Positions 6,729 through 63,063 of a DNA stretch of 64,000 nucleotides are shown here, one piece after another. The notes under the pieces were generated by a model. That model did not search any database. It was not told the DNA's origin and saw only the letters and a list, made by a program, of their open reading frames with translations. Numbering within the stretch: position 1 is the first letter of the stretch; each line of letters starts with the position of its first letter. The stretch lies in assembly GCA_965200965.1 (NCBI GenBank), contig OZ241744.1, positions 2,240,001-2,304,000 of the forward strand, in the 5' to 3' direction. The position numbers and the translations under genes were made by a program. The DNA comes from an uncultured Candidatus Binatia bacterium (lineage in GTDB: Bacteria; Desulfobacterota; Binatia; Bin18).

Positions 6729-6806
6729 CGGTCTTCCTCCACAGGGTTGCGAGCGTGTTGGCTGAGGCTGTAGGATGGGAGCATTGTTCACCAACAGGAT
6801 ACTGCT

Positions 6807-7313
6807 ATGGCGGTTCACGAGCATAAAAACAAGGCCCACCGCACAGCCCGCTGCGCGATTATCACCCTCAGCGATACCCGCAACGAAACCACCGACACCA
6901 GCGGTCAGCGCATCAAAGCCCTGCTGGCCGAGCGAGAGCAGCCGGTGGTCTCCTACCAGATTCTGAAAGATGAGCCGGCCCAGCTCACGGCCGCGGTCGG
7001 GGCGCTGCTGGCCCGGCCCGACATAGACCTCATTCTGACCAACGGCGGGACCGGTATTGCGCCACGCGATACCACCTTTGAGGCGATTCAGGAACTGCTG
7101 GAAAAGGAAATCCCCGGGTTTGGCGAACTGTTTCGGATGCTGAGCTATGAGGACATTGGCTCAGCCGCCATGCTGACCCGGGCCACTGCTGGCGTTGCCC
7201 GGGGAAAAGTCATTATTTCGCTGCCCGGCTCGACCGGCGCGGTGGAGTTGGCGATGACCAGGCTGGTCTTGCCCGAGCTGGGGCATATGCTGTTTGTCCT
7301 GCGGGGAGAGTAG
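6807..7313 (+). CDS. moaB: Molybdenum cofactor biosynthesis protein B
   Basis: ITLSDTR..TDTSG, NGGTGIAPRDTT, PGFGELFR, LPGS. Confidence 0.9.
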   Translation: MAVHEHKNKAHRTARCAIITLSDTRNETTDTSGQRIKALLAEREQPVVSYQILKDEPAQLTAAVGALLARPDIDLILTNGGTGIAPRDTTFEAIQELLEKEIPGFGELFRMLSYEDIGSAAMLTRATAGVARGKVIISLPGSTGAVELAMTRLVLPELGHMLFVLRGE

Positions 7314-23119: not shown

Positions 23120-23354
23120 AGTGACCCTCTCTCCCCTGTTGTATAGCGAACCGTGACGGCTTTTGACAGGGGGAGTGTACAGGGGATAGACACGCCGCGC
23201 TACACAACGCTGGTTTGGGCGGGATGTATCCTGCCGCGGGCAGCAATTTTTGTTCTTTTGAACGCGCCCATACCGCCAGACAGAAAGGCTCCCCCATGAC
23301 CCGGCCAGTCCCTGCACCAAAGATGGTGACCTTGGCCTCATGCGCGTCAACAAC

Positions 23355-23465
23355 CCCAAGGTGTACAAACGGGTGTGTGAGCTGGCCGAACACGACCCGG
23401 CTCCGTGGCAGCCGGCCCCGCTGCTCAAGCGGCTGGCCGAAGCCGGCCGGACTTTCAATCAGGGC
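23355..23465 (+). pseudogene. Remnant of the 3' end of a 3-hydroxyacyl-CoA dehydrogenase (FadB/FadN-like) gene
   Basis: PKVYKRVCELAEHDPAPWQPAPLLKRLAEAGRTF matches the typical W.PAPLL.RLA..G.TF terminus. Confidence 0.6.
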
Positions 23466-23492
23466 TGGGGACCTCCGCCCCTAATTGCCTTG

Positions 23493-23510
23493 TATCAGAA
23501 AAAAGTGATA
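23493..23510. promoter_or_regulatory. Putative operator for the XRE antitoxin
   Basis: TATCA-N8-TGATA inverted repeat ending 7 nt before the toxin GTG. Confidence 0.45.
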
Positions 23511-23516
23511 ACAGGT

Positions 23517-23882
23517 GTGTGGGAGTTCCGGGAATATCAGAGCAGCAAGGGGAAGCGTCCGGTGTCGGAGTGGTACGAAGCGTTGTCACAGAAAAACCGG
23601 GCGAGCGCCGACAGGTTCCTGGGTATCGTCCAGAAGCTGGAGCAGCTCAAACCACCGCGCTTCAAGAAATTTCGGGAGTTGCTGGAAGCGCGCTGGTTCG
23701 GGCAAAACAGGGTCCCGCATCGGATATTCTGTGACAAGCCATCTGACAGGCAAGTGACATTTCTGTGTGACTGTACCCACAAAGACAGGCGATATACCCC
23801 GACAAACGCCTGCAATACGGCTCTCAGACGCCGTGACGAAATACAGAACGGGGAGGCTGGCACGCATGAGTTCAATTTCTAA
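23517..23882 (+). CDS. RelE/HigB (Gp49-like) toxin
   Basis: WEFREYQSSKGKRPVSEWY, FKKFRELLEARW, VPHRIF, CTHK; overlaps the downstream HTH gene. Confidence 0.75.
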   Translation: MWEFREYQSSKGKRPVSEWYEALSQKNRASADRFLGIVQKLEQLKPPRFKKFRELLEARWFGQNRVPHRIFCDKPSDRQVTFLCDCTHKDRRYTPTNACNTALRRRDEIQNGEAGTHEFNF

Positions 23883-24546
23883 GCTGTGGCGGAAATTGGA
23901 GACAAAGGAGTACCGGGACGGCTACACGCAAGCGCAGCTCTCCATTGAGGTCCCTTTCCAGATTCGTGCGCTCCGCAAAGCACGCGGCTGGACCCAAGCC
24001 CAATTAGCTGAACGGTGCGGCATTCCGCAGGCCCGGATATCCCACATTGAACAGCCCGGGCGGGACCCGCTGTCGTTACGCACACTGTACCGGCTGTCGG
24101 CGGCCTTTGATGTCGGGCTGCTCGTCGAGTTTGTGCCCTTCAGTGAGCTGATCCGCCGTGAAGCGGCGTTTGACCCCAAGACCTTCAGCGTCCCCAGCTT
24201 CAAGGACGACCGGATGCAGACAGTTTTCTCTATCGCGTCTACATCAGCGAAGTTGTCATCTTTCAGAAGCGCGTCCACGCCTGGACGGATACAGCATCAG
24301 CGGCAAGTGGCGGAGAGATGGATCCAAGCGTGGCGGCCTCGCACGGATCGCACGGTATGGATACAGCATCAGCCACAAGCACAGGATGAGGCCCGTCCCA
24401 TGTCGCTCAAGACGGATCAACTCCCAGGGAAAGCGCCGCTATGGCCACCTTCCCTGCCGGTCAATCCAATCTCCTCCATTCCAGGAGATTACCGATATTA
24501 CAGCGGGAGGATGTCCCATGCCTACGAAACGCAGGTCACAGGATAA
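23866..24546 (+). CDS. XRE-family HTH antitoxin (HigA-like) with ~115-aa low-complexity C-terminal extension
   Basis: FQIRALRKARGWTQAQLAERCGIPQARISHIE, TLYRLSAAFDVGLLVEFVPFS. Confidence 0.85.
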   Translation: MSSISKLWRKLETKEYRDGYTQAQLSIEVPFQIRALRKARGWTQAQLAERCGIPQARISHIEQPGRDPLSLRTLYRLSAAFDVGLLVEFVPFSELIRREAAFDPKTFSVPSFKDDRMQTVFSIASTSAKLSSFRSASTPGRIQHQRQVAERWIQAWRPRTDRTVWIQHQPQAQDEARPMSLKTDQLPGKAPLWPPSLPVNPISSIPGDYRYYSGRMSHAYETQVTG

Positions 24547-24829
24547 GCCTGTCAACATCAATGAATTGCCGCAGCGGCAGGCGGCGGCATATGTTTCGAC
24601 ATACTCGAATAATGTTGAAGCAGGGACCACGCCTTGGGACTTCCGGTTTCTGTTCTTCGAGATTACCGAAGATGAAAGCGGGGAGCTTATACGCGAGAAG
24701 AAGGCTCGCGTGGTCATGTCCCCTCAGCACGCTATCGCCTTTTCTCAGTTATTGAACAATACTGTTGCCAAGTGGATGAAAGACCACGCCTCCGATGAGA
24801 ATGCTGACACAGAGCGTGAGGACACCTGA
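24518..24829 (+). CDS. DUF3467-like protein
   Basis: GGGAGG RBS; TYSNNVEAGTTPWDFRFLF...ARVVMSPQHAIAFSQLLNNTVAKW. Confidence 0.75.
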   Translation: MPTKRRSQDKPVNINELPQRQAAAYVSTYSNNVEAGTTPWDFRFLFFEITEDESGELIREKKARVVMSPQHAIAFSQLLNNTVAKWMKDHASDENADTEREDT

Positions 24830-24851: not shown

Positions 24852-27800
24852 GTGGATAATCGCTTCTTTGCCCAGCCGGTCCTGAACTCTCCCTACGCCT
24901 ATCCGACGCACCACTGGGAGTTGGACGAGCAGGGCCAGCCCACACAACGGATCAGCGAAGGCCGCCGCCGTGTGGCCTTCATCACCCCGGTTCCCACGCC
25001 CAGGAAGCGCAAACAACTCGAACTGGCCCTTGGCCCCGGCCAGGGACTTTCAAGCCCAGAGCAACAGTACGACCCGACCTCAATTATCAACGCCCTGCGC
25101 CGTCAGGTAGACCAGTGGCGCAGCCGGCCAGACCCGGCCGACTGGCGGGTCACGCCACAGACCGCCCGGCTGCTCCAGCACTGGCGACACCACCAATTTC
25201 ACACCATCCGCCCGTTCTTCTGTCAACTTGAAGCGCTTGAAACCGTGATCTGGCTGACTGAGGTCGCGCCAGGGGCCGGCAAGACCGGCAGGGACTTTCT
25301 CAGCTACCTGAGCAACGCCAACCCCGGTCTGGCCCGGCTGGCCCTCAAGCTGGCCACTGGTGCCGGCAAGACCACCGTCATGGCGATGCTGATCGCCTGG
25401 CAGACCATCAACGCGGTCCGCCACCCCGCCAGCCGGAGGTTTACCCGCGGCTTCCTCGTCGTCACCCCGGGCATCACCGTCAAAGACCGGCTGCGCGTCC
25501 TGTACCCGAACGACCCGGACAGCTATTACGCCAGCCGGGAACTGGTTCCCAGGGATATGCTCCTTGACCTGGAACGGGCCAAGATCGTGATTACCAACTA
25601 CCACGCCTTCAAGCGGCGCGAGCGCCTGGAGTTGTCAAAAGGCGGCCGCGCCCTGCTCCAGGGTCGGGGCGCGGCGCTGAGCACCCTGGAGAGCGAGGGC
25701 CAGATGCTTCAGCGGGTCATGCCCGAGCTGCTGGGCATGAAGCACATCCTGGCGTTGAACGACGAGGCCCACCACTGTTATCGGGAGAAGCTGGGAGCAG
25801 ACGCCGAGGCCGGCTCAGGAAGGGACGGAACGTGCCGTCAGGGCGAGAGGAAGGCGACCCGTTCCATCCTCGGCCAGGACAGGGCAGAGGCCGACAAAAA
25901 CAACGCCGCGGCCCGGCTGTGGATCTCCGGTCTGGAGGCGGTGGGCCACAAGCTGGGCCTCAGCCGGGTGATTGACCTGTCGGCAACGCCGTTTTTCCTG
26001 CGCGGCTCAGGCTATGCCGAGGGCACCCTCTTTCCCTGGACGGTGAGCGACTTCTCGCTGATGGACGCGATTGAGTGCGGGATTGTCAAGCTGCCGCGCG
26101 TCCCGGTGGCCGACAATATCCCCGGCGAGGGGATGCCCAGGTTCCGCAACCTGTGGGATCATATTGGCCGGCAGATGCCCAGAAAAGGCCGGGGCAAGAC
26201 CCGCGGTCTCGATCCGCTCAGCCTGCCAGTCGAGCTGCAAACCGCGCTGGATGCCCTGTACGGACACTACGAAAAGACCTATGCGCGGTGGATGGAGCGC
26301 GGTGTTGCGGCCCCCCCGTGCTTTATTGTGGTGTGCAATACCACCGCGACCTCCAAGCTGGTGTACGACTACATTGCCGGCTTTGAGCGCCACAACCCGG
26401 ACGGATCAACGACGCTGGAGAATGGCCGTCTGGCGCTCTTTCAGAACTTTGACCAGGGCGGGAGCCCCCTGGCCCGTCCCCGCACCCTGCTTATTGACAG
26501 CGAACAGCTCGAATCCGGCGCTGCCCTTGACCCGAACTTTCGGGCTATGGCGGCTGACGAGATTGCACGCTTCCGCCGTGAGATTGTCGAGAGGGGCGAC
26601 CGTCGGCAGGCCGAACACCTTTCTGACCAGGACCTGCTCAGGGAGGTGATGAACACGGTCGGCAAGCCGGGCCGGCTCGGCGAGTCGATCCGCTGCGTGG
26701 TGTCGGTGGCCATGCTGACCGAAGGCTGGGACGCCAACACCGTCACCCATGTGCTGGGCGTCCGCGCCTTTGGGACCCAACTCTTGTGCGAGCAAGTCAT
26801 TGGCCGGGCTTTGCGCCGGCAGTCCTATGAGCTCGACGACGACGGGCTGTTGCCTGTTGAGTACGCCGATGTGCTGGGGATTCCGTTCGACTTTACCGCC
26901 AAGCCGGTCGTTGCTCCGCCCCAGCCACCGCGTGAGACCGTCCGGGTCAAGGCCGTGCAGCCCGAGCGCGACCGGCTCGCCATCCGGTTTCCGCGTGTTG
27001 AAGGCTATCGGGTTGAACTGCCCGAGGAACGGCTCAGCGCCGCGTTCACCAAGGATTCTGTGCTGGAACTGACGCCGGACCTCGTCGGCCCGCCCATCAC
27101 CCGCAACGCCGGCATTATTGGCGAAGATGTCAACCTCAGCCTCGAACACCGGCAAGACCTGCGTCGCTCAAGCCTGCTGTACCAGCTTGCCAAGCGGCTG
27201 CTGTACACCCACTGGCGCGACCCCGGCCAGCAGCCCAAGCTCCACCTCTTCGGCCAGCTCAAGCGCATCACCAGGCAGTGGTTTGACAGCTGCCTGCGCT
27301 GTACCGGCGGCACCTATCCGGCTCAACTCATGTACCAGGAGCTGGCCGATATGGCCTGCGAGCGCATTACTGCCGGCATTACCCGCTCCCTGGTGGGCCA
27401 ACGGCCGGTCAAGGCCATGCTTGACCCCTACAACCCCACCGGCTCCACCAGCCAGGTGAACTTCAGCAGCTCCAGTCGCAACCGCTGGCAGGCGGACGCC
27501 CGCAAGTGTCACCTCAACTGGCTGATGCTGGACAGCGACTGGGAGGCCGAGTTCTGCCGTGTGGCCGAGGCCCACCCCCGGGTCCGGGCCTATGTCAAGA
27601 ACCACAATCTCGGCCTGGAAGTCCCCTACCGCTACGGCTCGGCCCCGCGTCGCTATATCCCCGACTTCATCGTCCTGCTTGACGACGGCCGGCCCGACCC
27701 CGTGCAGTTCATCGTCGAGATCAAAGGCTATCGGGGCGAAGACGCCAAGGAAAAAAGGGCGGCGATGGAGACCTGCTGGCTGCCTGGGGTCAACCGGCTC

Positions 27801-27899
27801 GGCGAGTACGGACGCTGGGCCTTTGCCGAGTTCACCGCCGTCTATGAGATTGACCGGCAGTTCGGGGAGCTGGTTGCGGCCCAGGTGGGCCGGGGCTGA
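24852..27899 (+). CDS. res: Type III restriction endonuclease subunit (BPTD_3080-like)
   Basis: LNSPY, PFFCQLEA, KLATGAGKT, NDEAHHCY, DLSATP, MLTEGWD, YIPDFIV..IVEIKG. Confidence 0.9.
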   Translation: MDNRFFAQPVLNSPYAYPTHHWELDEQGQPTQRISEGRRRVAFITPVPTPRKRKQLELALGPGQGLSSPEQQYDPTSIINALRRQVDQWRSRPDPADWRVTPQTARLLQHWRHHQFHTIRPFFCQLEALETVIWLTEVAPGAGKTGRDFLSYLSNANPGLARLALKLATGAGKTTVMAMLIAWQTINAVRHPASRRFTRGFLVVTPGITVKDRLRVLYPNDPDSYYASRELVPRDMLLDLERAKIVITNYHAFKRRERLELSKGGRALLQGRGAALSTLESEGQMLQRVMPELLGMKHILALNDEAHHCYREKLGADAEAGSGRDGTCRQGERKATRSILGQDRAEADKNNAAARLWISGLEAVGHKLGLSRVIDLSATPFFLRGSGYAEGTLFPWTVSDFSLMDAIECGIVKLPRVPVADNIPGEGMPRFRNLWDHIGRQMPRKGRGKTRGLDPLSLPVELQTALDALYGHYEKTYARWMERGVAAPPCFIVVCNTTATSKLVYDYIAGFERHNPDGSTTLENGRLALFQNFDQGGSPLARPRTLLIDSEQLESGAALDPNFRAMAADEIARFRREIVERGDRRQAEHLSDQDLLREVMNTVGKPGRLGESIRCVVSVAMLTEGWDANTVTHVLGVRAFGTQLLCEQVIGRALRRQSYELDDDGLLPVEYADVLGIPFDFTAKPVVAPPQPPRETVRVKAVQPERDRLAIRFPRVEGYRVELPEERLSAAFTKDSVLELTPDLVGPPITRNAGIIGEDVNLSLEHRQDLRRSSLLYQLAKRLLYTHWRDPGQQPKLHLFGQLKRITRQWFDSCLRCTGGTYPAQLMYQELADMACERITAGITRSLVGQRPVKAMLDPYNPTGSTSQVNFSSSSRNRWQADARKCHLNWLMLDSDWEAEFCRVAEAHPRVRAYVKNHNLGLEVPYRYGSAPRRYIPDFIVLLDDGRPDPVQFIVEIKGYRGEDAKEKRAAMETCWLPGVNRLGEYGRWAFAEFTAVYEIDRQFGELVAAQVGRG

Positions 27900-27956: not shown

Positions 27957-28232
27957 GTGCCCAAATACCTGCTCATTCTTGAAGACCCGTCCGCGCTGGA
28001 CAAAGACAAGCTGACCGCCCGCTACAAGGTGGTCTACAGCATCAACCCGCATACCTGGGCGATCCACACCAGCGACTCTACGCGCCAAATAAGCGAAGCC
28101 TTATTCTCCCCCCCGTCTGAAACCTACCTGCCGCCGTCCCATTCGGTGTACCGGATAGACGCCTGGTGGGGATACGAGACCCGCACGCTGTGGGAATGGA
28201 TGGACCGCAAGGAGGCCTGGCTTCGTGATTGA
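27957..28232 (+). CDS. Small hypothetical protein ending WWGYxxRxLWEW
   Basis: GTG start, 91 aa, 8-nt overlap with next gene; decayed relative at 50637-50833. Confidence 0.6.
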   Translation: MPKYLLILEDPSALDKDKLTARYKVVYSINPHTWAIHTSDSTRQISEALFSPPSETYLPPSHSVYRIDAWWGYETRTLWEWMDRKEAWLRD

Positions 28233-28866
28233 CGATGCCCCTGACCGCGCTGCGCCGCAAAGCTCCAGGCTGCCGGAGAATCTGCCGGAGGGGCAGCCTC
28301 ACCATCCTGCGGAGCAGGACCCGTCTGCGCTGCAAGGAACGGCTGATCTGCGCGAACGCTTTGGGCGCATTGAGGAGAGAACCGAGCACCTGCAAGGGGA
28401 TATTGCCCAGCTGCGTGGCGAGATAGGCGAACTGCGTGGAGAAGTGGGCGAGCTGCGCAAGGAGATGGGCGACATCCGCAGCACAATGGCCACCCGGAAG
28501 GAGATGGACGACATCCGCAGCACAATGGCCACCCGGGCGGATATTGCCCAACTCCGTGACGAAATCGGCGGGCTGCGCACTGCTACCAGCACCGATATTG
28601 CCCAACTCCGCAGCGAAATGCAGGGGATGGTCGGTCAGACCGCGTTCTGGTCCGGCATCGCCATTGTTGTCGCGGTTCTGCTTGGGTTCGGGACGCTGGT
28701 CTATAACAAAATCCCTGACCAGTTCCCCCCACCACCAGCCCAGCCAAGCCTTGAGTCCGGGCACACGCCGGCGCACCCCCCCCCGCCGCCTGAGCGTCCG
28801 CCCGTTCGCCTCAAACTCTTGCCTTGCCATACTGTATCGTGTGGATCATGGGACACATACATTTGA
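28225..28866 (+). CDS. Coiled-coil repeat protein with C-terminal TM helix (DUF1640/XhlA-like)
   Basis: AAGGAGG RBS; heptad repeats DIAQLRxE, MATRxD; TM segment AFWSGIAIVVAVLLGFGTLVY. Confidence 0.7.
   Translation: MIDDAPDRAAPQSSRLPENLPEGQPHHPAEQDPSALQGTADLRERFGRIEERTEHLQGDIAQLRGEIGELRGEVGELRKEMGDIRSTMATRKEMDDIRSTMATRADIAQLRDEIGGLRTATSTDIAQLRSEMQGMVGQTAFWSGIAIVVAVLLGFGTLVYNKIPDQFPPPPAQPSLESGHTPAHPPPPPERPPVRLKLLPCHTVSCGSWDTYI
28459..28536 (+). repeat. 39-bp intragenic tandem repeat x2 (KEMxDIRSTMATR)
   Basis: One mismatch between copies. Confidence 0.9.
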
Positions 28867-28897: not shown

Positions 28898-28970
28898 GAT
28901 CCGCCCCTTGGCAGTACGCTGTGTTCCTTGCGATCCCTGAACGCAGCCAGCCCCTTGGGGCTGTTTTTTT
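28898..28970 (+). ncRNA. Putative structured leader RNA / attenuator upstream of the NYN gene
   Basis: gctgtgttc/gaacgcagc stem, repeated gccccttgg, cagcccc-tt-ggggctg hairpin followed by T7. Confidence 0.45.
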
Positions 28971-28984
28971 GTGAGAAGCGTTTG

Positions 28985-29077
28985 ATGACCAAAGTCGCAA
29001 TCCTCATTGACGGCGGATATTTCCTCAAACGTCTTCCGACAATCTGTCCGCAAATTGATTCCTCATTGACGGGCTGA
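28985..29077 (+). pseudogene. 5' fragment of an NYN (LabA/DUF88) domain gene
   Basis: MTKVAILIDGGYFLKRL then a stop after 30 codons. Confidence 0.7.
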
Positions 29078-29129: not shown

Positions 29130-31826
29130 GTGAAGAAGGCGAAGAGACAGGCCAAAAAGCAGGTCAGGACGCTGACCCACCCCGAGGCCAAGCGGCCCAA
29201 TATCCCCACCGCGGAGCTTCAGGCGGTCATGGTCCAGGAGGAGCAGACCCCCGTCCGGGTGGCCTGTGAACGCCGCAATCGGGACCTGGACCCGCAGCTG
29301 GTGTGGCGTGGCAAGGACGAGCAGGACTGGTCGGAGCTGGTGGTCCACGCCCCGCCGCTCTATATTCAGGAGAAGGTCCACCCCAAGGCCCTGATTGATG
29401 ACTTGGCGGCCAGCGGGCAGAAACGCGCCGCTGAAAGGACGCCGCAGCCTGACCTGTTCGCCGACTTCAACGGCCTGCCCGACGAGGCCGCGGCCGCAGC
29501 GTTCTACCAGCACGAGGCCAGCTGGACCAACCGCATGATCCTGGGCGACAGCCTGCATGTGATGGCCTCACTGGCCGAGCGCGAAGGGCTGCGCGGCAAG
29601 GTGCAGTGCATCTATCTTGACCCGCCCTATGGCATCAAGTTCAACTCCAACTTTCAGTGGTCCACCACCAGCCGCGACGTGAAGGACGGCAGGGCCGACC
29701 ACATCACCCGCGAGCCCGAGCAGGTCAAAGCCTTCCGCGACACCTGGCGGGACGGCATTCACTCCTACCTGAGCTACCTGCGCGACCGCCTCACCGTGGC
29801 CCGCGACCTGCTGACCGAAAGCGGCTCCATCTTCGTCCAGATTGGGGACGAGAATGTGCATCGCGTCCGCGCCCTCATGGATGAGGTGTTTGGGGAGAGC
29901 AATTTCATTAACTTAATTTCATTTACAAAACGGAGTCCACAGCCGGATGACTTCCTATCGTCAGTAACTGATTACTTGGTTTGGTTTGGAAAGAATCGCC
30001 AGCAATCAAAATTCAGAGCCCCGTTTTTCCCGAAGAACGAATACTCCTCCGAATTCGTCACAAATGACCTTACATCATCACACTTCTATGACTCACCTGA
30101 TTTCCAGTTTGAGGGAAAGATATTTAAGCCAAGCCAAAGATATTGGTCTACAAGCATTCAAGGAATGAATAGGCTGTCTTTTGCCGGCAGGCTAATCGCC
30201 ACAAAGAACTCCATCAGATTTAAGAGATACCATGACGACTTTCCGGTCATGTATGTCGGCAATACTTGGCCCGATGTTGCCTTGTCTCATTTTGGCGATG
30301 AGAAGTGGTATGTGGTTCAAACCGCCTCCAAGGTCATCCAACGCTGCATCCTGATGACGACCGACCCGGGCGACCTGGTGCTTGACCCGACCTGCGGTTC
30401 GGGCACGACCGCGTATGTGGCTGAGCAGTGGGGGCGGCGATGGATTACGATTGACACATCCCGCGTTGCGCTGGCCCTGGCTCGCGCCCGACTGATGGGC
30501 GGGCGTTATCCGTATTACCTGCTGGCCGACAGCCCCGAAGGTCACGCGAAGAAAGCCGAACTCGCCGGCAAGGCTCCGTCTGAAACGCCCAGCTCTGGCA
30601 ACATCCGCCAGGGCTTTGTCTATGAGCGGGTGCCGCACATCACGCTGAAATCCATCGCCAATAACGTCGAGATTGACATGATCTGGGAGGAGTACCAGGC
30701 CACGCTTGAACCGCTGCGGGAGGCGCTCAATGCCGCCCTGAACGAGCAGTGGCGGGAGTGGGAGATACCACGCGAGGCCGGCGAGCACTGGCCGGCGGAG
30801 GCCAGGCGGCTGCACGCCGAGTGGTGGGAGGCACGCATCGCCCGCCAGCGGGCCGTTGACGCTTCTATTGCCGCCAAAGCCGACCATGAATATCTGTACG
30901 ATAAACCCCACGAGGACAAATCCAAGGTCCGGGTGGCCGGGCCGTTCACGGTCGAGAGCCTGTTGCCGCACCGGGTGCTGGCCGTTGATGAGGATGACGA
31001 GTTGATCGGCCTGGAAGCGGACCGGAACAGCGAGCGGCCTCAGGGCGAGACCGACTTTGCCGGCGTCATCCTGGAGCACTTGCGGATCGCGGGGGTGCAG
31101 CAGGCCCACAGGGAAGACACCATCCGGTTCCAATCTGTCACCGGCTGGCCGGGCCGGCTGGTGTGTGCCGAAGGCCGCTATGTCGAAGGCGAGGAAGAAA
31201 GCGGAGCGGAACACCGCGCCGGCATCTTTATCGGCCCGGAGTTTGGCACGGTGTCGAGGGCCGACCTGGTGGCCGCGGCACGGGAGGCCGGCGAGGCCGG
31301 TTTCAGCAGCCTGATCACCTGCGCCTTCAATTATGACGCCCATTCCGCGGAGTTTGACCGGCTGGGCCGCCTCCCGGTGCTCAAAGCCCGCATGAACGCC
31401 GACCTGCACATGGCCGATGCCCTGAAAAACACCGGCGGCGGCAACCTGTTTGTGATCTTCGGCGAGCCGGATATTGAACTGCTGGAGGCCGAGGACGGCA
31501 CGATGCGGGTCAAGATCAAAGGCGTCGATGTCTTCCACCCCAACACCGGCGAGGTCCGCAGCGACGGGCCGGAGGGCATCGCCTGCTGGTTCATTGACAC
31601 CGACTACAACGAAGAGAGCTTCTTTGTCCGCCACGCCTATTTCCTGGGCGCAAACGACCCCTACAAGGCCCTCAAGACCACCCTCAGGGCCGAGATTGAC
31701 CCGGACGCCTGGGCGGCACTCCACAGCGACACCTCACGCCCCTTTGCCAAGCCGGCGTCTGGCCGCCTCGCCGTCAAGGTGATCAACCACCTGGGCGACG
31801 AGGTGATGAAGGTGTTCCGGGTGTGA
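29130..31826 (+). CDS. mod: Type III RM methyltransferase subunit
   Basis: DPQLVWRGKD, IYLDPPYGI, LDPTCGSGTT, WFIDTDY, AVKVINHLGDEV. Confidence 0.92.
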   Translation: MKKAKRQAKKQVRTLTHPEAKRPNIPTAELQAVMVQEEQTPVRVACERRNRDLDPQLVWRGKDEQDWSELVVHAPPLYIQEKVHPKALIDDLAASGQKRAAERTPQPDLFADFNGLPDEAAAAAFYQHEASWTNRMILGDSLHVMASLAEREGLRGKVQCIYLDPPYGIKFNSNFQWSTTSRDVKDGRADHITREPEQVKAFRDTWRDGIHSYLSYLRDRLTVARDLLTESGSIFVQIGDENVHRVRALMDEVFGESNFINLISFTKRSPQPDDFLSSVTDYLVWFGKNRQQSKFRAPFFPKNEYSSEFVTNDLTSSHFYDSPDFQFEGKIFKPSQRYWSTSIQGMNRLSFAGRLIATKNSIRFKRYHDDFPVMYVGNTWPDVALSHFGDEKWYVVQTASKVIQRCILMTTDPGDLVLDPTCGSGTTAYVAEQWGRRWITIDTSRVALALARARLMGGRYPYYLLADSPEGHAKKAELAGKAPSETPSSGNIRQGFVYERVPHITLKSIANNVEIDMIWEEYQATLEPLREALNAALNEQWREWEIPREAGEHWPAEARRLHAEWWEARIARQRAVDASIAAKADHEYLYDKPHEDKSKVRVAGPFTVESLLPHRVLAVDEDDELIGLEADRNSERPQGETDFAGVILEHLRIAGVQQAHREDTIRFQSVTGWPGRLVCAEGRYVEGEEESGAEHRAGIFIGPEFGTVSRADLVAAAREAGEAGFSSLITCAFNYDAHSAEFDRLGRLPVLKARMNADLHMADALKNTGGGNLFVIFGEPDIELLEAEDGTMRVKIKGVDVFHPNTGEVRSDGPEGIACWFIDTDYNEESFFVRHAYFLGANDPYKALKTTLRAEIDPDAWAALHSDTSRPFAKPASGRLAVKVINHLGDEVMKVFRV

Positions 31827-31846
31827 ATTGCCCACATAGGACGGAA

Positions 31847-32998
31847 ATGGCCCCCCGGCGTAAAAAAAGCGCGCTCCCAGAACTCAATTCAACCACAAAG
31901 GTAGCGGTTGAGACCCTCCGGTTTGACCGATGTAACCCGCGGCTGATTGGACAGGATACTGAGGCTTCGGATGAGTCCATCATCGCGCAACTCTACCGCT
32001 CTGCTGAACTTGACGAGTTGTTGCAGTCCGTTTCGACGAACGGCTATCTCGACATTGAACCGCTGATCGTCATGGCCGCCTCAAACGGCACCGGCGGTGT
32101 GATCGTGCTTGAAGGCAACCGAAGACTTGCTACCCTCCGACTGCTACGCGAAGAGGGCTTGGCCGGTCAAATCAGAGCGTCGGAAAAACTGCCTATTGCG
32201 GTCCCGCAGGTCAATGATGCTCTGAGGGCATCCTTTGACGAAGTTTCTGTGTATCGCGTGGAAACCCGCGAAGCGGCGCGTTCGTTCATCGGCTTCAAGC
32301 ATATCAACGGCGCGGCGAAATGGGATTCGTATGCCAAGGCAAGGTTTGCCGCTGACTGGTACAGGAACGCCAATATCTCTCTAGGAGAAATCGCAAAAGC
32401 GATTGGCGACCGGCACGACACCATAAAACGCATGGTATCGGCGATCTATGTTCTCGAACAAGCCAAAGACAAGGATCAGTTTGATCTCGAAGACCGGAGT
32501 ACAAAAAAACTCAACTTCTCCCATCTCTATACCGCCCTTTCCCGCTCGCAGTACATGGAGTACCTGGGCATTGACACAGCCTGGGCGCGTTACGATCCAA
32601 AACCTGCCCCGGTGCCGCAGGAACGGCTTGGGCACCTGAGAAAGGTGCTCGTGTGGATGTATGGCTCCAAGGAGGAAAGCGCAAAACCGGTCGTGCGAGC
32701 GCAAAACCCCGACATCAAGCATCTTGGCGAAGTCATCGTTCATGCGGAAGCGCTTCATGTCCTCGAAACGACAGGCGATCTTGCTCGGGCCCATGAAAGT
32801 ACGGAGCCCGTCGACCGGCGCTTCAGCGCGTCATTGATCCGGGCGCGGGATGAAATCCGGGCTGCTTCCGCTTCCTTGAGGGCCTATGACGGTCGTGACA
32901 AGTCGCTGCTCGATATCGCAGAAGACATCAAGGAGACCACGGAAACTGTTCATTCGAGAATGGCCAAAAAATTCCGTGAAGCCGCTGCCGAAGAATGA
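31847..32998 (+). CDS. ParB/Srx N-terminal-domain protein (defence-island type)
   Basis: FDRCNPRL, NGYLDIEPLIV, VLEGNRRLA, GFKHINGAAKW; alternative GTG start at 31823. Confidence 0.75.
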   Translation: MAPRRKKSALPELNSTTKVAVETLRFDRCNPRLIGQDTEASDESIIAQLYRSAELDELLQSVSTNGYLDIEPLIVMAASNGTGGVIVLEGNRRLATLRLLREEGLAGQIRASEKLPIAVPQVNDALRASFDEVSVYRVETREAARSFIGFKHINGAAKWDSYAKARFAADWYRNANISLGEIAKAIGDRHDTIKRMVSAIYVLEQAKDKDQFDLEDRSTKKLNFSHLYTALSRSQYMEYLGIDTAWARYDPKPAPVPQERLGHLRKVLVWMYGSKEESAKPVVRAQNPDIKHLGEVIVHAEALHVLETTGDLARAHESTEPVDRRFSASLIRARDEIRAASASLRAYDGRDKSLLDIAEDIKETTETVHSRMAKKFREAAAEE

Positions 32999-33996
32999 CC
33001 CTTGCCCTCTATCTTCCTCCCGACTCGGTAACAGGCTCTCCGCCTGACTTCAATCTGGCGGCCGATTTCCTGGAATTGTCAGCGTTCTTTGCAGAAACAA
33101 GCTCTGCTCCGGTATTGGAAATCAAGAACACAATCGACATTGGCGCGCCAGAAGAGCCCGTTGATGTCGATGACGAAATGCGCGCAGGTAGCGAGGAAGC
33201 CGTATCAGGAACAGTCAATCTGATTGAGACACGCGGGAGTGCGCTGGGACCTGCCTATCCTTACAAGCTGGACTCTTCCGGCGATATGCTGGAGTGTATG
33301 TGGCAGGGAGATTCGTTAGGGCAAGCAGCATATGTCCTGTGTCTCATATTATCGAATCTCCGCTCAATATCCCCGCTCCTGGGCAGCTCTCCTGTCCATC
33401 CAGACGATACGGACATCCGCAAATTACGAGAGTATTTTCAGGCCTTCGCAACCGCGGCTCTGGCGGCTGAAATAGGGGGAAGTTCCTGGTCTTTCGGATT
33501 TCCGAGACCGGATCACTCATCTTTTCTTGTCAAGCTGAAAGAAATCTGGCGGGTAATTCGAGATGGGCAGGTCGAGGCACAGATCGGTGCGCCAACCCAG
33601 CCGAAGGACGACCAAGTTGATGTGTTTGCCGCTCGCCCTCACCCTGATCAACTGCCAGGTTTCCTGTTGGCCGCCGCGCAGGTTGCAACGGGACAAAATT
33701 GGAAGGCGAAGTCTCTGCGAGGCCACCTCAGCGCGTTCAAAAGTCGCTGGTTCAGCCAGCAACCGGTGACGGACTTCATCCCATATATGATTATTCCGTT
33801 CGCCCAAGGGGATGAAGAATTCCTTGACGATGTGCGGACGATGGGAAATGTGCTGCACAGGCTGCGTGTTCCCCGCAGGGTGGAGGAAACCAGACATCCC
33901 TCGATGGCAGGTACCACAATTGAATCCTATGAGCGCCTGAAGGGGGCCGTGCGGTGGGTGACGGCCTATAGAAGTCGCGTGGGAGCAGCGACATGA
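32995..33996 (+). CDS. Hypothetical protein, possible restriction-endonuclease-like fold
   Basis: ATGA-coupled; ADFLEL, FGFPR, KDDQVDV, QVATG resembles D..(D/E/Q)xK variants. Confidence 0.6.
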   Translation: MTLALYLPPDSVTGSPPDFNLAADFLELSAFFAETSSAPVLEIKNTIDIGAPEEPVDVDDEMRAGSEEAVSGTVNLIETRGSALGPAYPYKLDSSGDMLECMWQGDSLGQAAYVLCLILSNLRSISPLLGSSPVHPDDTDIRKLREYFQAFATAALAAEIGGSSWSFGFPRPDHSSFLVKLKEIWRVIRDGQVEAQIGAPTQPKDDQVDVFAARPHPDQLPGFLLAAAQVATGQNWKAKSLRGHLSAFKSRWFSQQPVTDFIPYMIIPFAQGDEEFLDDVRTMGNVLHRLRVPRRVEETRHPSMAGTTIESYERLKGAVRWVTAYRSRVGAAT

Positions 33997-50344: not shown

Positions 50345-50640
50345 TCAGGAAAAGAAGAGCTTGAGAATCCCCACAGCCAGACCTGCCACAACCGCCATTC
50401 CGCCAAGCACTCCTCCCAGGCACCAGACCTTGACTTTCTCAACGTCTTCTCTGGTAGCGAGGTACCGGAGGGTCCCTTTTACGCTCTGGAGATCCTCTCT
50501 GGCAGCGGGATACTGGACATGCGTCCCAGGCTCGCCAGACGGGCTTCAATGCTGCTCCCACCATTGCCCCCGCTTGAACGGGCCGGGACAGCCGGCTCTG
50601 CCTGACTCCCGTCTCCTACCCGCAGGGATGATTCGCTCAT
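50345..50640 (-). pseudogene. Frameshifted XhlA/DUF1640-like coiled-coil + TM gene
   Basis: GGNGGSSIEARLASL then shift near 50526 to THVQY..REDLQSVK..YLATREDVEKVKVWCLGGVLGGMAVVAGLAVGILKLFFS*. Confidence 0.7.
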
Positions 50641-50833
50641 TCTCTTTCCTCTGCCTGTCCGAGCCAGTCCCAAAGAGAGCGGACGCTGTAGCCCCGGCAT
50701 AAGCCATGTTCAGCCTGAAAACAACACCACGAGCAGTCTCGATGCGGTCATCGCCCTTCAGCCCGACGGAGACCGCAATGGTTTCTGCAAGAGCGTCACC
50801 CTGCACCAGAAAGAATGTATCGTTCAGCCGATA
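50637..50833 (-). pseudogene. Truncated, frameshifted relative of the 27957-28232 small protein
   Basis: YRLNDTFFLVQGDALAETIA...VVFRLNMAYAG then shift at 50692-50695 to YSVRSLWDWLGQAEERE*; ATGA-coupled to the 50640 gene. Confidence 0.6.
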
Positions 50834-58594: not shown

Positions 58595-59643
58595 CGAATG
58601 CAGGCACAACAGATCTTCACCAACCTGCGGATGGAGCGGTCGACATCTGCATTTTCTTCGACACGGTCAATCTACCCGGGGGCGGAGGAAACCAGTTTCT
58701 AAGGAGTCTCGCGTCCGAGTTTACTTGCTTGGGTCATAGAGTCACAAACCGGCCTGCGCCGGAAACCCAGGTGATTTTGGTCAATGGCTTCAACTATGGC
58801 ATAAACAGGCATTTGCGCCCCGGCCAAGTCGCCCAAATGAGGCAGACGGGAAAAATGACACCGCTGGGAAGAGTGCTCCCTTCATGGCTGTACAGGCCGC
58901 GCAAGCGAAAGGGGCCTGTCCTGATTCACCGGGTTGACGGAGTGCCTGAACTGGTGCGTGGACACAGGAGCAGGGCGGACCGGGTCCAGCCGGCGGTGAA
59001 TCGCTTGACCGACTGCACGATTTTCCAGACCGGGTATTGCGTGACGAGTTTTGCCGAGCACGCTGCGGTCGCCCCCTCAAAGTGGTGTATCATCAAGAAC
59101 GGTGTTGACCCGAGGGTGTTTTACCCGGACCCGAATAACACATGGAGCGCAGGCCGGCTTCGTCTTGTAGCGGTCTCCTGGTCATCAAATTCCCGCAAGG
59201 GCTTCGCTACCCTGGCCGATGTATCACGTCTGCCGGGTGTGGAGTTGAGGTTCGTGGGCAACTGGTGTCCTGACATTCCCCATGCGAATGTGAAGCTAGC
59301 CGGTACGCTACGGTCTCAAGACCTTGCTGAGGTCCTGCGTTCTTCCCATGCTATGATCCACGCCGCATGGAACGAACCCTGTTCCAACGCCATCGTGGAG
59401 GCAATGGCGTGCGGTCTTCCTGTCATTTACCGCGATTCCGGGGGCAACCGGGAACTGGCGGGTGAGTATGGGACACCGATAACCGAAAACCTGCCAAGTG
59501 TGCTGGACAATCTGAGGAACCGCTACATTGGCTTACGCTCCAAAGTGTTGCAAGATAGAGATGCCTTCCTCATTACCCGAGCCGCGAAAGAATATGTGGG
59601 GGTGTTCCAGCACGCAATATGCCACAGGAGACAATTCAAATGA
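58591..59643 (+). CDS. Glycosyltransferase family 4
   Basis: GGGNQFL, IKNGVD, EPCSNAIVEAMACGLPV. Confidence 0.85.
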   Translation: MTNAGTTDLHQPADGAVDICIFFDTVNLPGGGGNQFLRSLASEFTCLGHRVTNRPAPETQVILVNGFNYGINRHLRPGQVAQMRQTGKMTPLGRVLPSWLYRPRKRKGPVLIHRVDGVPELVRGHRSRADRVQPAVNRLTDCTIFQTGYCVTSFAEHAAVAPSKWCIIKNGVDPRVFYPDPNNTWSAGRLRLVAVSWSSNSRKGFATLADVSRLPGVELRFVGNWCPDIPHANVKLAGTLRSQDLAEVLRSSHAMIHAAWNEPCSNAIVEAMACGLPVIYRDSGGNRELAGEYGTPITENLPSVLDNLRNRYIGLRSKVLQDRDAFLITRAAKEYVGVFQHAICHRRQFK

Positions 59644-60362
59644 TAACACGGCTTACCGATCTGGTGATACGAAAACTGCTCGAGGCGAAGCGAGGACTGC
59701 GGTTCCTGATCTATAAGACATCCGAAGCCGATGTTATGAAAAGGTTTCATATGACGTACTATCACCAGGGGAGAGAACGCGGTCTTACTTGGAAAAAAAC
59801 CTGCTGGCTGGGTACACAGGTCCTGAAGTGTCCCTTTGATCTCTGGATATATCAAGAGATTATTCATAGAATCAAACCCGACCTTATCATCGAGACCGGC
59901 ACCTTCAAAGGAGGCTCGGCCTTGTTTATGGCTTCTATCTGTGATATCTGCGGTACAGGGCAGATAGTATCAATTGACATAAAGCCCGCTTATGAAAGAC
60001 CCAATCACGAACGGATAACATACCTAACAGGCTCCTCAACTTCTGAGTCCATCGTCACTACTGTGAAGGAGTTGGCACGAGATGCAAAAACCGTTATGGT
60101 TCTGTTGGACTCTGCCCACGAAAAGAACCATGTACTCAACGAGCTTCAGGTCTACGCTCCACTGGTAACATTGAACAGTTATCTTATAGTTGAGGATACC
60201 CATTTAAACGGCAATCCAATCCGCTCGGATTTCGGCGACGGTCCAATGGAAGCGGTTACAGAGTTTCTCCAAACCAATTCGTCTTTCAGAAAGGATCCCA
60301 TTGACCGAAAATTCCTCCTGACCTTCCATCCAGGTGGATATCTGGTTCGTGTGAAAGGATAG
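59640..60362 (+). CDS. CmcI (cephalosporin hydroxylase)-family methyltransferase
   Basis: KCPFDLWIYQEII, IETGTFKGGSA, LDSAH, YLIVEDT. Confidence 0.85.
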   Translation: MITRLTDLVIRKLLEAKRGLRFLIYKTSEADVMKRFHMTYYHQGRERGLTWKKTCWLGTQVLKCPFDLWIYQEIIHRIKPDLIIETGTFKGGSALFMASICDICGTGQIVSIDIKPAYERPNHERITYLTGSSTSESIVTTVKELARDAKTVMVLLDSAHEKNHVLNELQVYAPLVTLNSYLIVEDTHLNGNPIRSDFGDGPMEAVTEFLQTNSSFRKDPIDRKFLLTFHPGGYLVRVKG

Positions 60363-60364
60363 AT

Positions 60365-61468
60365 ATGCTCCGTTTTCTGAACCGGATTCTGTCGAAAAAA
60401 CCAGAGGAGGCCCGAGTCGAGATACCAGTACAAATAGCCGTCATCGGCTTAGGTGCCATGGGACAACGGAATTTGAGACATATCAAGAAGTCTCACAATT
60501 TCCGTTTAGTCGGTGTTCAGGACCTGAGAAGAGAGGTTGCGGAAACAATCGCACGAAGCTCCAGAGTCAAAGCCTATGATGATATTGACTCCTGTTTAGA
60601 CGACTCAGAGAGTGAAGCGATATTCGTATGTACCCCACATCACCTTTTGGCTGACATGGGGCTGAAAGTTTTAGAATCTGGTAAGCATTTGCTTATAGAA
60701 AAACCAATGGCCATGAATACACGATCAGCGGATACATTGATTGAATCAAGCAGGGAACGGGATCTCTTGATATCGGTAAATTACTCGAGGGTCTTTACCG
60801 ATGCCCTTCGTTCAGCCAGGCATTTAATCGAGTCAGGGGCTGTGGGGAATTTGATAGGTGTGGAAACGAGGTGGAATGGGTATAAATCCATCGGTTATTA
60901 CTATGGATCACGCAGCCCGGTGCCTGACGACTGGCGTCTCAATAAAAGCAAATCAGGTGGAGGTATGCTGATGATGACCACTTGCCACGCCTTACACTAT
61001 GTACCACATATTACTGGTGCCAGAGCTGAAACAGCATCTGCTCTGATTCCCTCCTATTCTCCGTTCCTGACGGACATCGAGGATACAGTACAGGGGATAC
61101 TGAAGTTCGAAGATGGTGCGGTCTGGACAATTTTGACTTCAAGCAGTCAGAGAGGAACACAGATAAATGACACCACGATTTGGGGGGGCAACGGAACAAT
61201 CGTAGTGAATAATGATCGAGTTCGATATTATTCAACGCGAATTATAAATGGTAAAAGGCCAGGTATCTGGCATGTCAACAAGACCCCTGATTCTGAGATT
61301 TATTTTGACCGTTGGTTGGACAACACCGCGCTTGCCATCAGACAAGGCAGACCTTTGGAAATAAGTCCAGAAAGCGCTCGAGAGACTCTGGCTGTCATTG
61401 AAGCACTCTATCGTAGTGCTGGATCGAGGTCTCTGGTCACGGTTGGCAGAACGAGTACAGACATATGA
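60365..61468 (+). CDS. Gfo/Idh/MocA family oxidoreductase
   Basis: IGLGAMG, CTPHHL, IEKPM, SGGGML. Confidence 0.85.
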   Translation: MLRFLNRILSKKPEEARVEIPVQIAVIGLGAMGQRNLRHIKKSHNFRLVGVQDLRREVAETIARSSRVKAYDDIDSCLDDSESEAIFVCTPHHLLADMGLKVLESGKHLLIEKPMAMNTRSADTLIESSRERDLLISVNYSRVFTDALRSARHLIESGAVGNLIGVETRWNGYKSIGYYYGSRSPVPDDWRLNKSKSGGGMLMMTTCHALHYVPHITGARAETASALIPSYSPFLTDIEDTVQGILKFEDGAVWTILTSSSQRGTQINDTTIWGGNGTIVVNNDRVRYYSTRIINGKRPGIWHVNKTPDSEIYFDRWLDNTALAIRQGRPLEISPESARETLAVIEALYRSAGSRSLVTVGRTSTDI

Positions 61469-62118
61469 AGGAACATAATTCCTTAGTCGAATCAATTAAT
61501 TTGAGTGGAATCTCATCTTCTTTCAGCAAAGAAATTATTCGGATATCGTTGTGGAATAACGGATTCTCCGGTGAGTTTTTTGTGAACTTTGATTGTGGAG
61601 AGAGCGAATTGTCCAGGATACAGCCTCCTCCAGGCTATGAGAGTACACTGTGGGGGGTCTACTTGATTGCAATGCATTTGGCTGACCAGGCTCAACTGAA
61701 TCTGGGCTACTCTGTTGCGGTCGAGGGATCCCATCTGATCGATGATGCGATCAGGACTCTCTTGAGTTGTCAAAAGAGTATCAGGATAGTGTCTTCAGGA
61801 AGAGAAAACGGACTATCTGTAGATACATTTATTGGGTGTTCGCTCCCTGCTTTGGCGAGGGTACTACCGACAATGTCCAGGTATGGAATGATATTCTTAC
61901 CATGCAGTAATTTTTCTGACGCTCAAAATCTCAATATCTATTCTACCATTCATCGAAATGGCCTTAGAGTATACGCCGCGAAGCTTGGATATAACATGAT
62001 ACACCAGCTCCCCAAATTGAATCAAAGACTCCAGAGACTGATGACGAGATGTGGGCATCTGTCTATCGTATTTCAGAAACAGAGATCAAACCCTGAAACG
62101 AGGTGGCATCTTGAGTAG
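61465..62118 (+). CDS. Hypothetical protein
   Basis: ATGA-coupled within the operon. Confidence 0.55.
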   Translation: MKEHNSLVESINLSGISSSFSKEIIRISLWNNGFSGEFFVNFDCGESELSRIQPPPGYESTLWGVYLIAMHLADQAQLNLGYSVAVEGSHLIDDAIRTLLSCQKSIRIVSSGRENGLSVDTFIGCSLPALARVLPTMSRYGMIFLPCSNFSDAQNLNIYSTIHRNGLRVYAAKLGYNMIHQLPKLNQRLQRLMTRCGHLSIVFQKQRSNPETRWHLE

Positions 62119-63043
62119 CGAAAAGATCGAAATCAACCTCATTTTGGGAAACCATATTACCAACATCGGTAATGCCTTTCTTGATATGGGCTCAGAGATG
62201 TCACTATCTCTAGCATATCCGAATGCAGCAATTCGTAAGTCCTCTTCTTTTCCTGTATGGTTTGGAGATCAACGCAAAAACAGAAGGTACCTCAAACACG
62301 ATCTCTTTACTCTTGCAGATAAAATACCATGCAGCTTTGCAGTCTTTTCTGGAATGGTAGTAACAGAGAGATTTATCAGGCGTTATGGTACCCTGATACG
62401 GTTGCTGAGAAAACGCGGGGCAAGAATCATACTAAACGGAGCGGGTCCAGTATTTTATTCCAGCGGTGAGGCAGCGGAAGTAATTGCTTTTTGGCGCAGA
62501 TACGGTCTCTATGGTCTCGTATCCAGGGACAGATATACATTCGAAACGTACAAGAACATGGCTGAACATGCCTACGATGGTATTGATTGCGGATTTTTCT
62601 TGAGTGACGCTTTTATTCCGGTAGTTTTGGATGTAGAATCATTCAATATATTAACTTTTGACAGCATGCGTGAACCAGATGCTCTTGGGTCGCGGATGGC
62701 CGTGCGTCCTCATCATAAACTGTACCCTCCTCCTGATAAGAGGACCCTTCGGAGTATGAACAAGAAAAATTGGCTCTTCTCCGAGCAGGTATCAGATATT
62801 CTCAACGTGTACGCTAACGCCAAGGAAGTCTACTCAGACCGAGTCCATGCATGTGTAGCCGCTGCTTCATTCGGTAAGCCCTTCCAACTTTATTCGGATT
62901 CGAAAAGGGCACTTCTTTTTGAGAGACTCGGCGTTTCCCTGAAAGAATTGCGCCACCATTTGGTAAAAGTAGATGAGGAGAGACTTCAAAAAGAAAAAGA
63001 TGATCAGGTAGGATACCTTAAAAGCATACTGATTACACAATGA
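62111..63043 (+). CDS. Polysaccharide pyruvyl transferase family protein
   Basis: NIGNAF, SRDRYT, DCGF, SDRVHA..AA.FGKP. Confidence 0.75.
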   Translation: MSSEKIEINLILGNHITNIGNAFLDMGSEMSLSLAYPNAAIRKSSSFPVWFGDQRKNRRYLKHDLFTLADKIPCSFAVFSGMVVTERFIRRYGTLIRLLRKRGARIILNGAGPVFYSSGEAAEVIAFWRRYGLYGLVSRDRYTFETYKNMAEHAYDGIDCGFFLSDAFIPVVLDVESFNILTFDSMREPDALGSRMAVRPHHKLYPPPDKRTLRSMNKKNWLFSEQVSDILNVYANAKEVYSDRVHACVAAASFGKPFQLYSDSKRALLFERLGVSLKELRHHLVKVDEERLQKEKDDQVGYLKSILITQ

Positions 63044-63063
63044 TATCTCGAATGAGGTGAGTG

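Follow-up and report, generated by a model that had tools for sequence, protein, structure and literature searches.

A compact gene pair, here termed A-B, lies between a res and a mod gene in a 64,000-nucleotide stretch of DNA (the window) from an uncultured Candidatus Binatia bacterium, and such pairs are passenger cargo of IS1595 and IS1-like transposons and of phages. By prediction, the first protein, A, is a relative of Cas2 and VapD that has lost its enzymatic activity, and the second, B, is a coiled-coil protein with a single transmembrane helix. The reading that we favor, with slightly less than even confidence, is a mobile cassette in which non-catalytic A regulates membrane-anchored B, with conditional growth arrest or membrane damage as the outcome. 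The preliminary description of this DNA had reported two overlapping genes between res and mod, and their coordinates, the 91-aa length of A, and the 8-nt overlap are confirmed here. The features of the locus are as follows.

24852-27899, forward strand: res, a restriction endonuclease of the BPTD_3080 family and the left flank of the slot (NCBIfam NF046055, 1293 bits against a cut-off of 800)
27957-28232, forward strand: gene A, 91 aa, with a GTG start and the C-terminus GYETRTLWEWM
28225-28232, forward strand: 8-nt overlap of the A stop and B start, GTGATTGA, seen in the sequence
28225-28866, forward strand: gene B, 213 aa, containing heptads and a single hydrophobic segment that starts at residue 141
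28776-28784, forward strand: C9 run setting the length of the C-terminal tail of B (C7 in three other sequencing runs)
28948-28973, forward strand: terminator-like hairpin and T-run 3' of B (two found in the region against 1.3 expected, a weak signal)
28985-29077, forward strand: 30-codon 5' stub of an NYN-domain gene
29130-31826, forward strand: mod, a type III-like methyltransferase and the right flank of the slot (PADLOC MTase_III)

The overlap of A and B likely reflects translational coupling. In comparison with the orthologous genes of the relative G007, dN/dS is 0.22 for A, and for B it is 0.25 over the first 85 codons and 0.02 over the transmembrane region; both are therefore working genes under purifying selection. 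The coil of B differs between strains by in-frame changes of 21 and 99 nt, with the frame kept. The single transmembrane helix originally assigned to B stands, and the listed length of 213 aa is conditional: the last ∼25 residues depend on the C9 run (with two fewer C, a stop falls near 28790), and in the three other runs B is 188 aa and ends in HPPAA-stop, as in G007. One sequencing run, possibly the window's own source, agrees with the C9 form. A scan for sigma-70 promoters yielded none that passed, an Rfam search of 27.8-29.3 kb gave no match, and the sequencing runs containing this DNA include no RNA dataset. A TAnnnT box occurs 11-14 nt upstream of 18 of 93 A genes (vs. 10 and 6 at control positions), an excess too weak for a claim of leaderless transcription. 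Sponge metagenomes are among the runs that contain the 49.5-51.5 kb stretch of the window, and the loci with close A proteins indicate that its host is likely a sponge-associated member of the Binatia.

The A family comprises 1,514 clusters matched at E ≤ 0.001 by a 10-sequence profile among 1.84 billion representatives. A word-index search with the window's protein (A1) alone found only A1, and the family was reached via a third copy of the pair in the same genome and via profiles. Within the class, the profile matches 14 of 151 genomes, and it has no match in other classes of the phylum (2 of 301 genomes matched, both in this class). Neither Pfam nor NCBIfam assigns A consistently to a family, the PDB contains no relative by sequence, and predicted viral structures give no clear match; single members used as tblastn queries had no hits in plasmids (P0110) or GenBank phages (P0123), and a close-relative scan of viral contigs yielded no A. 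In the ESM Atlas the family falls in unnamed clusters, one with DUF3884 in 17% of its members; the YD-family proteins have no Pfam DUF3884 match.

The AF2 model of A (pLDDT 90.9) has a ferredoxin-like fold with a C-terminal helix at residues 76-83. Its best structural match is BPSL1038 (PDB 7VXR), a member of the Cas2/VapD-like nuclease subfamily with the same combination of ferredoxin fold and added C-terminal helix (Z 8.3 in VIA-align with an rmsd of 2.5 for 78 residues, aligning A 1-83 to 2-87), and this protein is also the top Foldseek match (E 0.014, TM 0.60); Cas2 chains (Z 5.3-5.7) and GhoS (Z 4.7) follow. The Z of 8.3 is near the tool's 'common' level, but is well above the next row (5.7), and the whole domain is covered. 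By sequence, A and BPSL1038 share only 8-11% identity and no profile match. A does match by profile the YD-bearing PHROG 1090 (phrog_1090; probability 90.5%, E 1.4e-6, 81 columns), which consists of small Cas2/VapD-like proteins and shares with A a C-terminal W-x-G...W-L segment; 25 of 146 A members match this group weakly. The ferredoxin/Cas2-like fold earlier attributed to the small protein is thus supported by the model and by both of these relatives.

The catalytic site of these relatives is another matter. The BPSL1038 active-site motif, given as D11(X20)SST in the accessible text (PMC10491678), is absent from the A family: a turn of the S-[ST]-x-W type occurs in four of the 146 A sequences, and no Asp is conserved. 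PHROG 1090 keeps a Y-D-L motif that is lost in A, where Y/F-D occurs within the first 14 residues of only three of the 146. Across the same sequences, no conserved Asp, Arg, Lys, or His was found at catalytic positions. Judged by these alignments, A is without the Cas2/VapD catalytic Asp, a point that goes beyond the preliminary description. The invariant residues, identified by column conservation, are G72, W79, E80, and W81. BPSL1038 is described as a homodimer with dsDNA endonuclease activity, and the available part of the report places its dimer interface at a strand end and a helix that are equivalent to the sites of the invariant residues in A (PMC10491678). Because the catalytic Asp is lost and the invariant residues fall on a BPSL1038-type dimer interface, we infer that A would form a non-catalytic homodimer like BPSL1038. 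As for Cas2 itself, none of the 146 members matches Pfam CRISPR_Cas2, A gives no match when compared by profile with two true Cas2 sequences (the profile being thin), and there are no cas genes among the 125 nearest neighbors of A-B loci.

The loss of the catalytic site favors a role in binding protein over one as a nuclease. VapW sets the precedent: this VapD/Cas2 homologue is catalytically dead and serves instead as a regulator that binds protein. Its partner is an active VapD nuclease, and the accessible text mentions no membrane, transmembrane, or coiled partner (PMC11980593). For BPSL1038, no partner gene is described in the available text, which contains neither 'operon' nor adjacent locus tags (PMC10491678), and there is no B gene behind the three best of the PHROG 1090 members examined. 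In one locus (L181:1193-2001, forward strand), a weak PHROG 1090 match overlaps a gene that is PIN-like by eye and has no Pfam match at E ≤ 0.001, possibly a Cas2-like plus PIN TA pair.

The loss of catalytic residues also bears on a GhoST-like (type V) arrangement, in which A would be a sequence-specific RNase cutting the B mRNA and B a membrane toxin. The gene order and broad architecture are those of ghoS-ghoT, with the Cas2-like gene first and the membrane-protein gene second, and GhoS is among the fold matches of A, yet that match is no better than those to generic ferredoxin folds. GhoT is a small two-transmembrane protein, unlike B with its coiled coil and single helix. Moreover, GhoS is a catalytic RNase that relies on R28, according to the part of the source available (PMC4010927), whereas the A family carries no such conserved residue. 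We therefore consider this arrangement very unlikely.

The association of A with B was assessed across loci sampled by a degenerate DNA motif for the C-terminus of A, so that the counts start from A, cover motif-bearing members only, and are blind to B genes without A. The genome scan gave at least 120 motif matches, of which 80 were examined and 71 had a profile match (L046 and L066 were dropped as chance), and the viral scan gave 18 motif loci with 17 true A. After removal of six duplicate loci and two double-counted frameshifted genes, 103 A genes remained. The pairing drawn from the window recurs among them: a single-transmembrane ORF stands directly behind A in 88 of the 103 (61 of 70 genome loci, 12 of 15 viral loci, and 15 of 18 class loci), 87 of these within -25 to +10 nt, against a background of 25 of 624 among the remaining genes of these loci, 9 of them tight. 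An overlap of 1, 4, or 8 nt is present in 55 of the 88 pairs. Among the sources of the loci are Acidobacteria, Alpha-, Beta-, and Gammaproteobacteria, Latescibacterota, Chloroflexota, Nitrospirales, and Binatia, as well as phages. Pairwise identities of A and B track one another (Spearman 0.37, a value reached in 0 of 500 shuffles; 0.32 for pairs below 50% identity), which shows joint inheritance only, because kin share labels. That A and B are unrelated passengers, adjacent by chance, could be argued from the low complexity and poor conservation of B and from the A genes that stand alone, but the excess over background, the fixed order and overlap, and the correlated divergence largely refute this, and we regard it as extremely improbable.

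Two departures from the usual pairing were observed. At L112:6785-7545 (forward strand), the protein behind A is Pro-rich, has two transmembrane helices, and lacks a coiled coil, which makes it an alternative membrane partner. In two alphaproteobacterial genomes (L114 and L115, near 6800-7250), a solo A lies at the same site just upstream of infA (IF-1), which suggests a retained solo role.

The carriers of the pair are seen directly in the surrounding DNA. Of 67 genome loci, 10 have an IS1595 or IS1-like transposase within 500 bp, one has it at 0.5-1.5 kb, and none has it farther away, with the flank beyond 500 bp being 11 times that within it; five of the ten transposase loci were profile seeds and five were not. 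Among the class loci, which reach only 1.5 kb, a transposase lies within 500 bp in 5 of 18 and at 0.5-1.5 kb in one more, and the 15 viral loci have none near A-B. In three complete elements (L109, L051, and L098), terminal inverted repeats of 22-25 bp (25 bp and perfect in L109) and 8-bp target duplications enclose the transposase together with A-B. The IS1-like transposases fall below the NF033558 cut-off (64-75 bits vs. 100). In phages, where 50 of 72 neighbors were scanned, the pair occurs beside integrase, CI repressor, terminase, or tail and injection genes, in no fixed place and thus moron-like. The mobile two-gene unit postulated from the window alone is in this way substantiated by the three complete elements and the phage loci, and the identity of the carriers as IS1595 and IS1-like transposons is new relative to that proposal. 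Passenger-carrying IS1595/IS1 elements are characterized by terminal inverted repeats, an 8-bp duplication, and additional cargo, for instance P63C or KilA-N genes; our literature search found no report of A-B as such cargo. Genes with P63C and KilA-N domains were also observed in or beside the same elements as A-B (L098, L109, L073, and L003). The window copy has no transposase or terminal repeats adjoining it.

The res-mod junction that holds the window copy has different occupants within the genus: A-B in G007, HicAB in G006, Gp49/HTH with a whole NYN gene in G002, and an AAA-ATPase pair in G004. Judging by the whole gene at the same junction in G002, the NYN stub at 28985 is the start of an earlier occupant of this slot. 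A Gp49-like toxin, an HTH antitoxin, and DUF3467 lie upstream of res (window 23340-24829, forward strand), and a close Gp49/HTH pair inside the slot of G002 implies that cassettes change position around this operon. Directly behind mod (window 31823-33996, forward strand) stand two coupled genes that form a candidate defense pair; the product of the first is ParB-like, has 391 aa, and matches PADLOC PDC-M38A (E 1e-22) as well as PD-Lambda-5_A, and that of the second has 333 aa and no family match. Toward the end of the window (59000-64000), the G+C content goes down to 44-49% over the last 4 kb, which suggests another acquired island.

A second copy of the pair is present in the window as two pseudogenes.

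50345-50640, reverse strand: B2 pseudogene, with a Gly-rich N-terminus, a short coil, a transmembrane helix, and one frameshift near 50525
50637-50833, reverse strand: A2 pseudogene, with the 5' end missing (∼98 bp in comparison with G007) and one frameshift near 50695

That a decayed and divergent pair lies at 50.3-50.8 kb had been noted previously and is upheld: the A profile finds A2 at E 0.002, and against an intact pair of a relative (L015), A2 aligns at 67% over 54 aa and 78% over 18 aa (E 1e-21) and B2 at E 1e-20; copy 2 is homologous to an intact pair in the relative G105. The two loci of the window are homologous and share the gene order; A2 and B2 overlap by ATGA and the genes of copy 1 by 8 nt. 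Assembly or long-read errors were ruled out as the source of the copy 2 frameshifts, since no indel is found there in the contigs of four runs from three studies (one run may be the window's source). In G007, A of copy 2 is broken by a different frameshift and B is open. A1 and A2 are only ∼22% alike and belong to different subfamilies, and copy 2 is thus an independent arrival and not a duplicate. The third copy, which is intact with an 8-nt overlap, lies outside the window (G000:C1:3157049-3157571), and its A protein is 24% identical to A1; because each copy comes from a different subfamily, all three arrived separately. A gene for a D12-class adenine methyltransferase was observed 0.6 kb downstream of copy 3 (L001:8156-9082, reverse strand).

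B is poorly conserved in sequence (median identity 17%). The N-terminus is Pro-rich (17% Pro in the first 30 residues, with Thr-Pro motifs in 33 of 81 proteins), and is followed by a loosely conserved first helix whose commonest form is D-x-S-F-x-L-Q-x-x-M-E-L. In B1, the heptad coiled coil carries beta-layer-type motifs at residues 88 and 101 and leads to a transmembrane helix at ∼141-159 and a Pro-rich tail; across B proteins the number of heptads varies, and each has one transmembrane helix. Because K+R residues are more abundant before this helix than after it (2.5 vs. 1.15), B is predicted to be N-in and C-out, with its N-terminus and coil inside and a short tail outside. The beta-layer consensus, aliphatic-A-T-K-polar-D/E, belongs to trimeric alpha/beta coiled coils in the portion of the source available (PMC4786415); it is found in only 11 of 81 B proteins (B1 and 10 others), and those in B1 carry R in place of K. 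B is probably an oligomer, and would be a trimer where beta-layer motifs are present. No conserved polar transmembrane residue suggesting a pore was found in B. For the L058 pair, a complex prediction combining two A chains and residues 1-72 of B scored 0.07 and 0.02 against a mark of 0.32, with the fold of the partner uncertain, and these scores speak neither for nor against binding.

Pfam and PHROG matches of B are scattered and weak, and PADLOC gives only matches of the coiled-coil type. B1 scores 19.6 bits against DUF1640 (PF07798), for which the cut-off is 33.5, and at E ≤ 0.001, four of the 81 B proteins match PF07798 and three match XhlA (PF10779). Both the DUF1640/CCDC90-like and XhlA proteins resemble B in having a coiled-coil stalk with a C-terminal anchor, and the former also combine a beta-layer motif in the stalk with a membrane anchor, as in B1. 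DUF1640 proteins have a folded head where B has its Pro-rich N-terminus. Coiled-coil repeat genes that adjoin no A-profile match were also observed in G000:C1 (near 2382000, 2391500-2393400, 2850600-2867200, 1040300-1040700, and 2069400-2069800), several with a C-terminal transmembrane helix and some in tandem. One genome holds three A-B pairs within 6 kb (L110:6488-12230, reverse strand), with B coils of 132, 165, and 209 aa that are built from an 11-residue repeat.

The resemblance of B to the stalk-and-anchor proteins raises the alternative that B is a harmless membrane anchor or envelope modifier (acting by superinfection exclusion, receptor masking, or as a tether), with A as a soluble adaptor and no toxicity. 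Consistent with this are the weak DUF1640/CCDC90-type matches (4 of 81), the many related coil-plus-transmembrane genes in the genome with no A-profile match adjoining, the six loci in which B is open and A is broken, and neighbors that are mostly housekeeping genes. The tight coupling, the transport on IS elements, and a slot that TA- and Abi-type cassettes also occupy, however, fit selfish or defensive cargo better, and the outside tail of B is short and unconserved; we hold this alternative to be somewhat unlikely.

The broken genes have a further bearing on how the two proteins may interact. A is broken with B open at six loci, including the G007 orthologue of copy 2, and where A is intact, B is broken in four, absent in seven, replaced by a two-transmembrane protein in one, and cut by the contig end in two, counts that are blurred by polarity from the coupling and by possible MAG sequencing errors. 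If the pair were a type II-like addiction module, with B a constitutive membrane toxin and A an antitoxin binding it, then the antitoxin-first order, the co-inheritance of two small coupled genes on mobile elements, and the VapW precedent would be expected features, IS carriage would suit it, and B could be shut off through polarity when A is frameshifted; orphan A is also commoner than orphan B among the A-found loci (four broken plus seven absent vs. six). On the other hand, the six loci with open B, some of them perhaps MAG errors, make this asymmetry smaller than expected of a constitutive toxin, A of copy 2 broke at different places in G007 and in the window genome, and A has no DNA-binding domain for autoregulation. 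A module of this kind is accordingly unlikely, and a strict antitoxin role for A is weakened by the same six loci.

An anti-phage function had also been put forward as plausible, and it stays putative here. The nearest neighbors at genome loci are mostly housekeeping genes, and of the 125 scanned in all (by simple ORF calling; 71 Pfam-named and 54 unnamed), 6 of the 71 named, in five loci, are defense- or TA-like, a raw count taken with no control genes; defense-island enrichment is weak. No PADLOC 2.0 model matches A (seven A proteins), a single match at E 0.002 being to an unrelated stretch of DrmA. It is conceivable, though less likely than not, that A-B is a widespread anti-phage system absent from the catalogues: a dimer of the dead Cas2/VapD type would act as sensor and trigger an oligomeric single-pass coiled-coil membrane effector, with spread mainly as IS cargo. 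Spread in this way, and not in defense islands, A-B would have been missed by neighborhood-based screens.

The reading that we favor, regulation of a membrane effector by a non-catalytic partner, draws these strands together. Each part belongs to a known superfamily, and the arrangement recalls GhoST; the pair is best classed as a two-gene cassette of regulator and membrane effector, outside any named system. In this cassette, the non-catalytic Cas2/VapD-like dimer of A would regulate B, perhaps by acting on its Pro-rich N-terminus or first coil turns. Since the loss of A is tolerated, the effector B may be harmless until triggered, and would then arrest growth or damage the membrane. The most speculative step is that a phage or stress signal would be sensed by A, whereupon B would cluster and depolarize the membrane. 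Carriage by IS elements and prophages, together with the slot shared with TA and Abi cassettes, points to a selfish or defensive benefit, and the outcome of triggered B could benefit both the element and its host. No paper describing the A-B pair was found in the accessible literature, and large tables of defense candidates could hold it.

With these results, a family that is absent from Pfam, NCBIfam, and PADLOC and spans at least 1,514 clusters gains a predicted fold, a fixed partner, and a carrier, in a compact unit of two genes and less than 1 kb. If A-B is a defense system, it would represent a new use of the Cas2/VapD fold, in the non-catalytic control of a membrane effector, and the passenger genes of IS elements would be a source of immune systems that has been searched too little. 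Otherwise, A-B still defines a common cargo of IS1595/IS1 elements and prophages.
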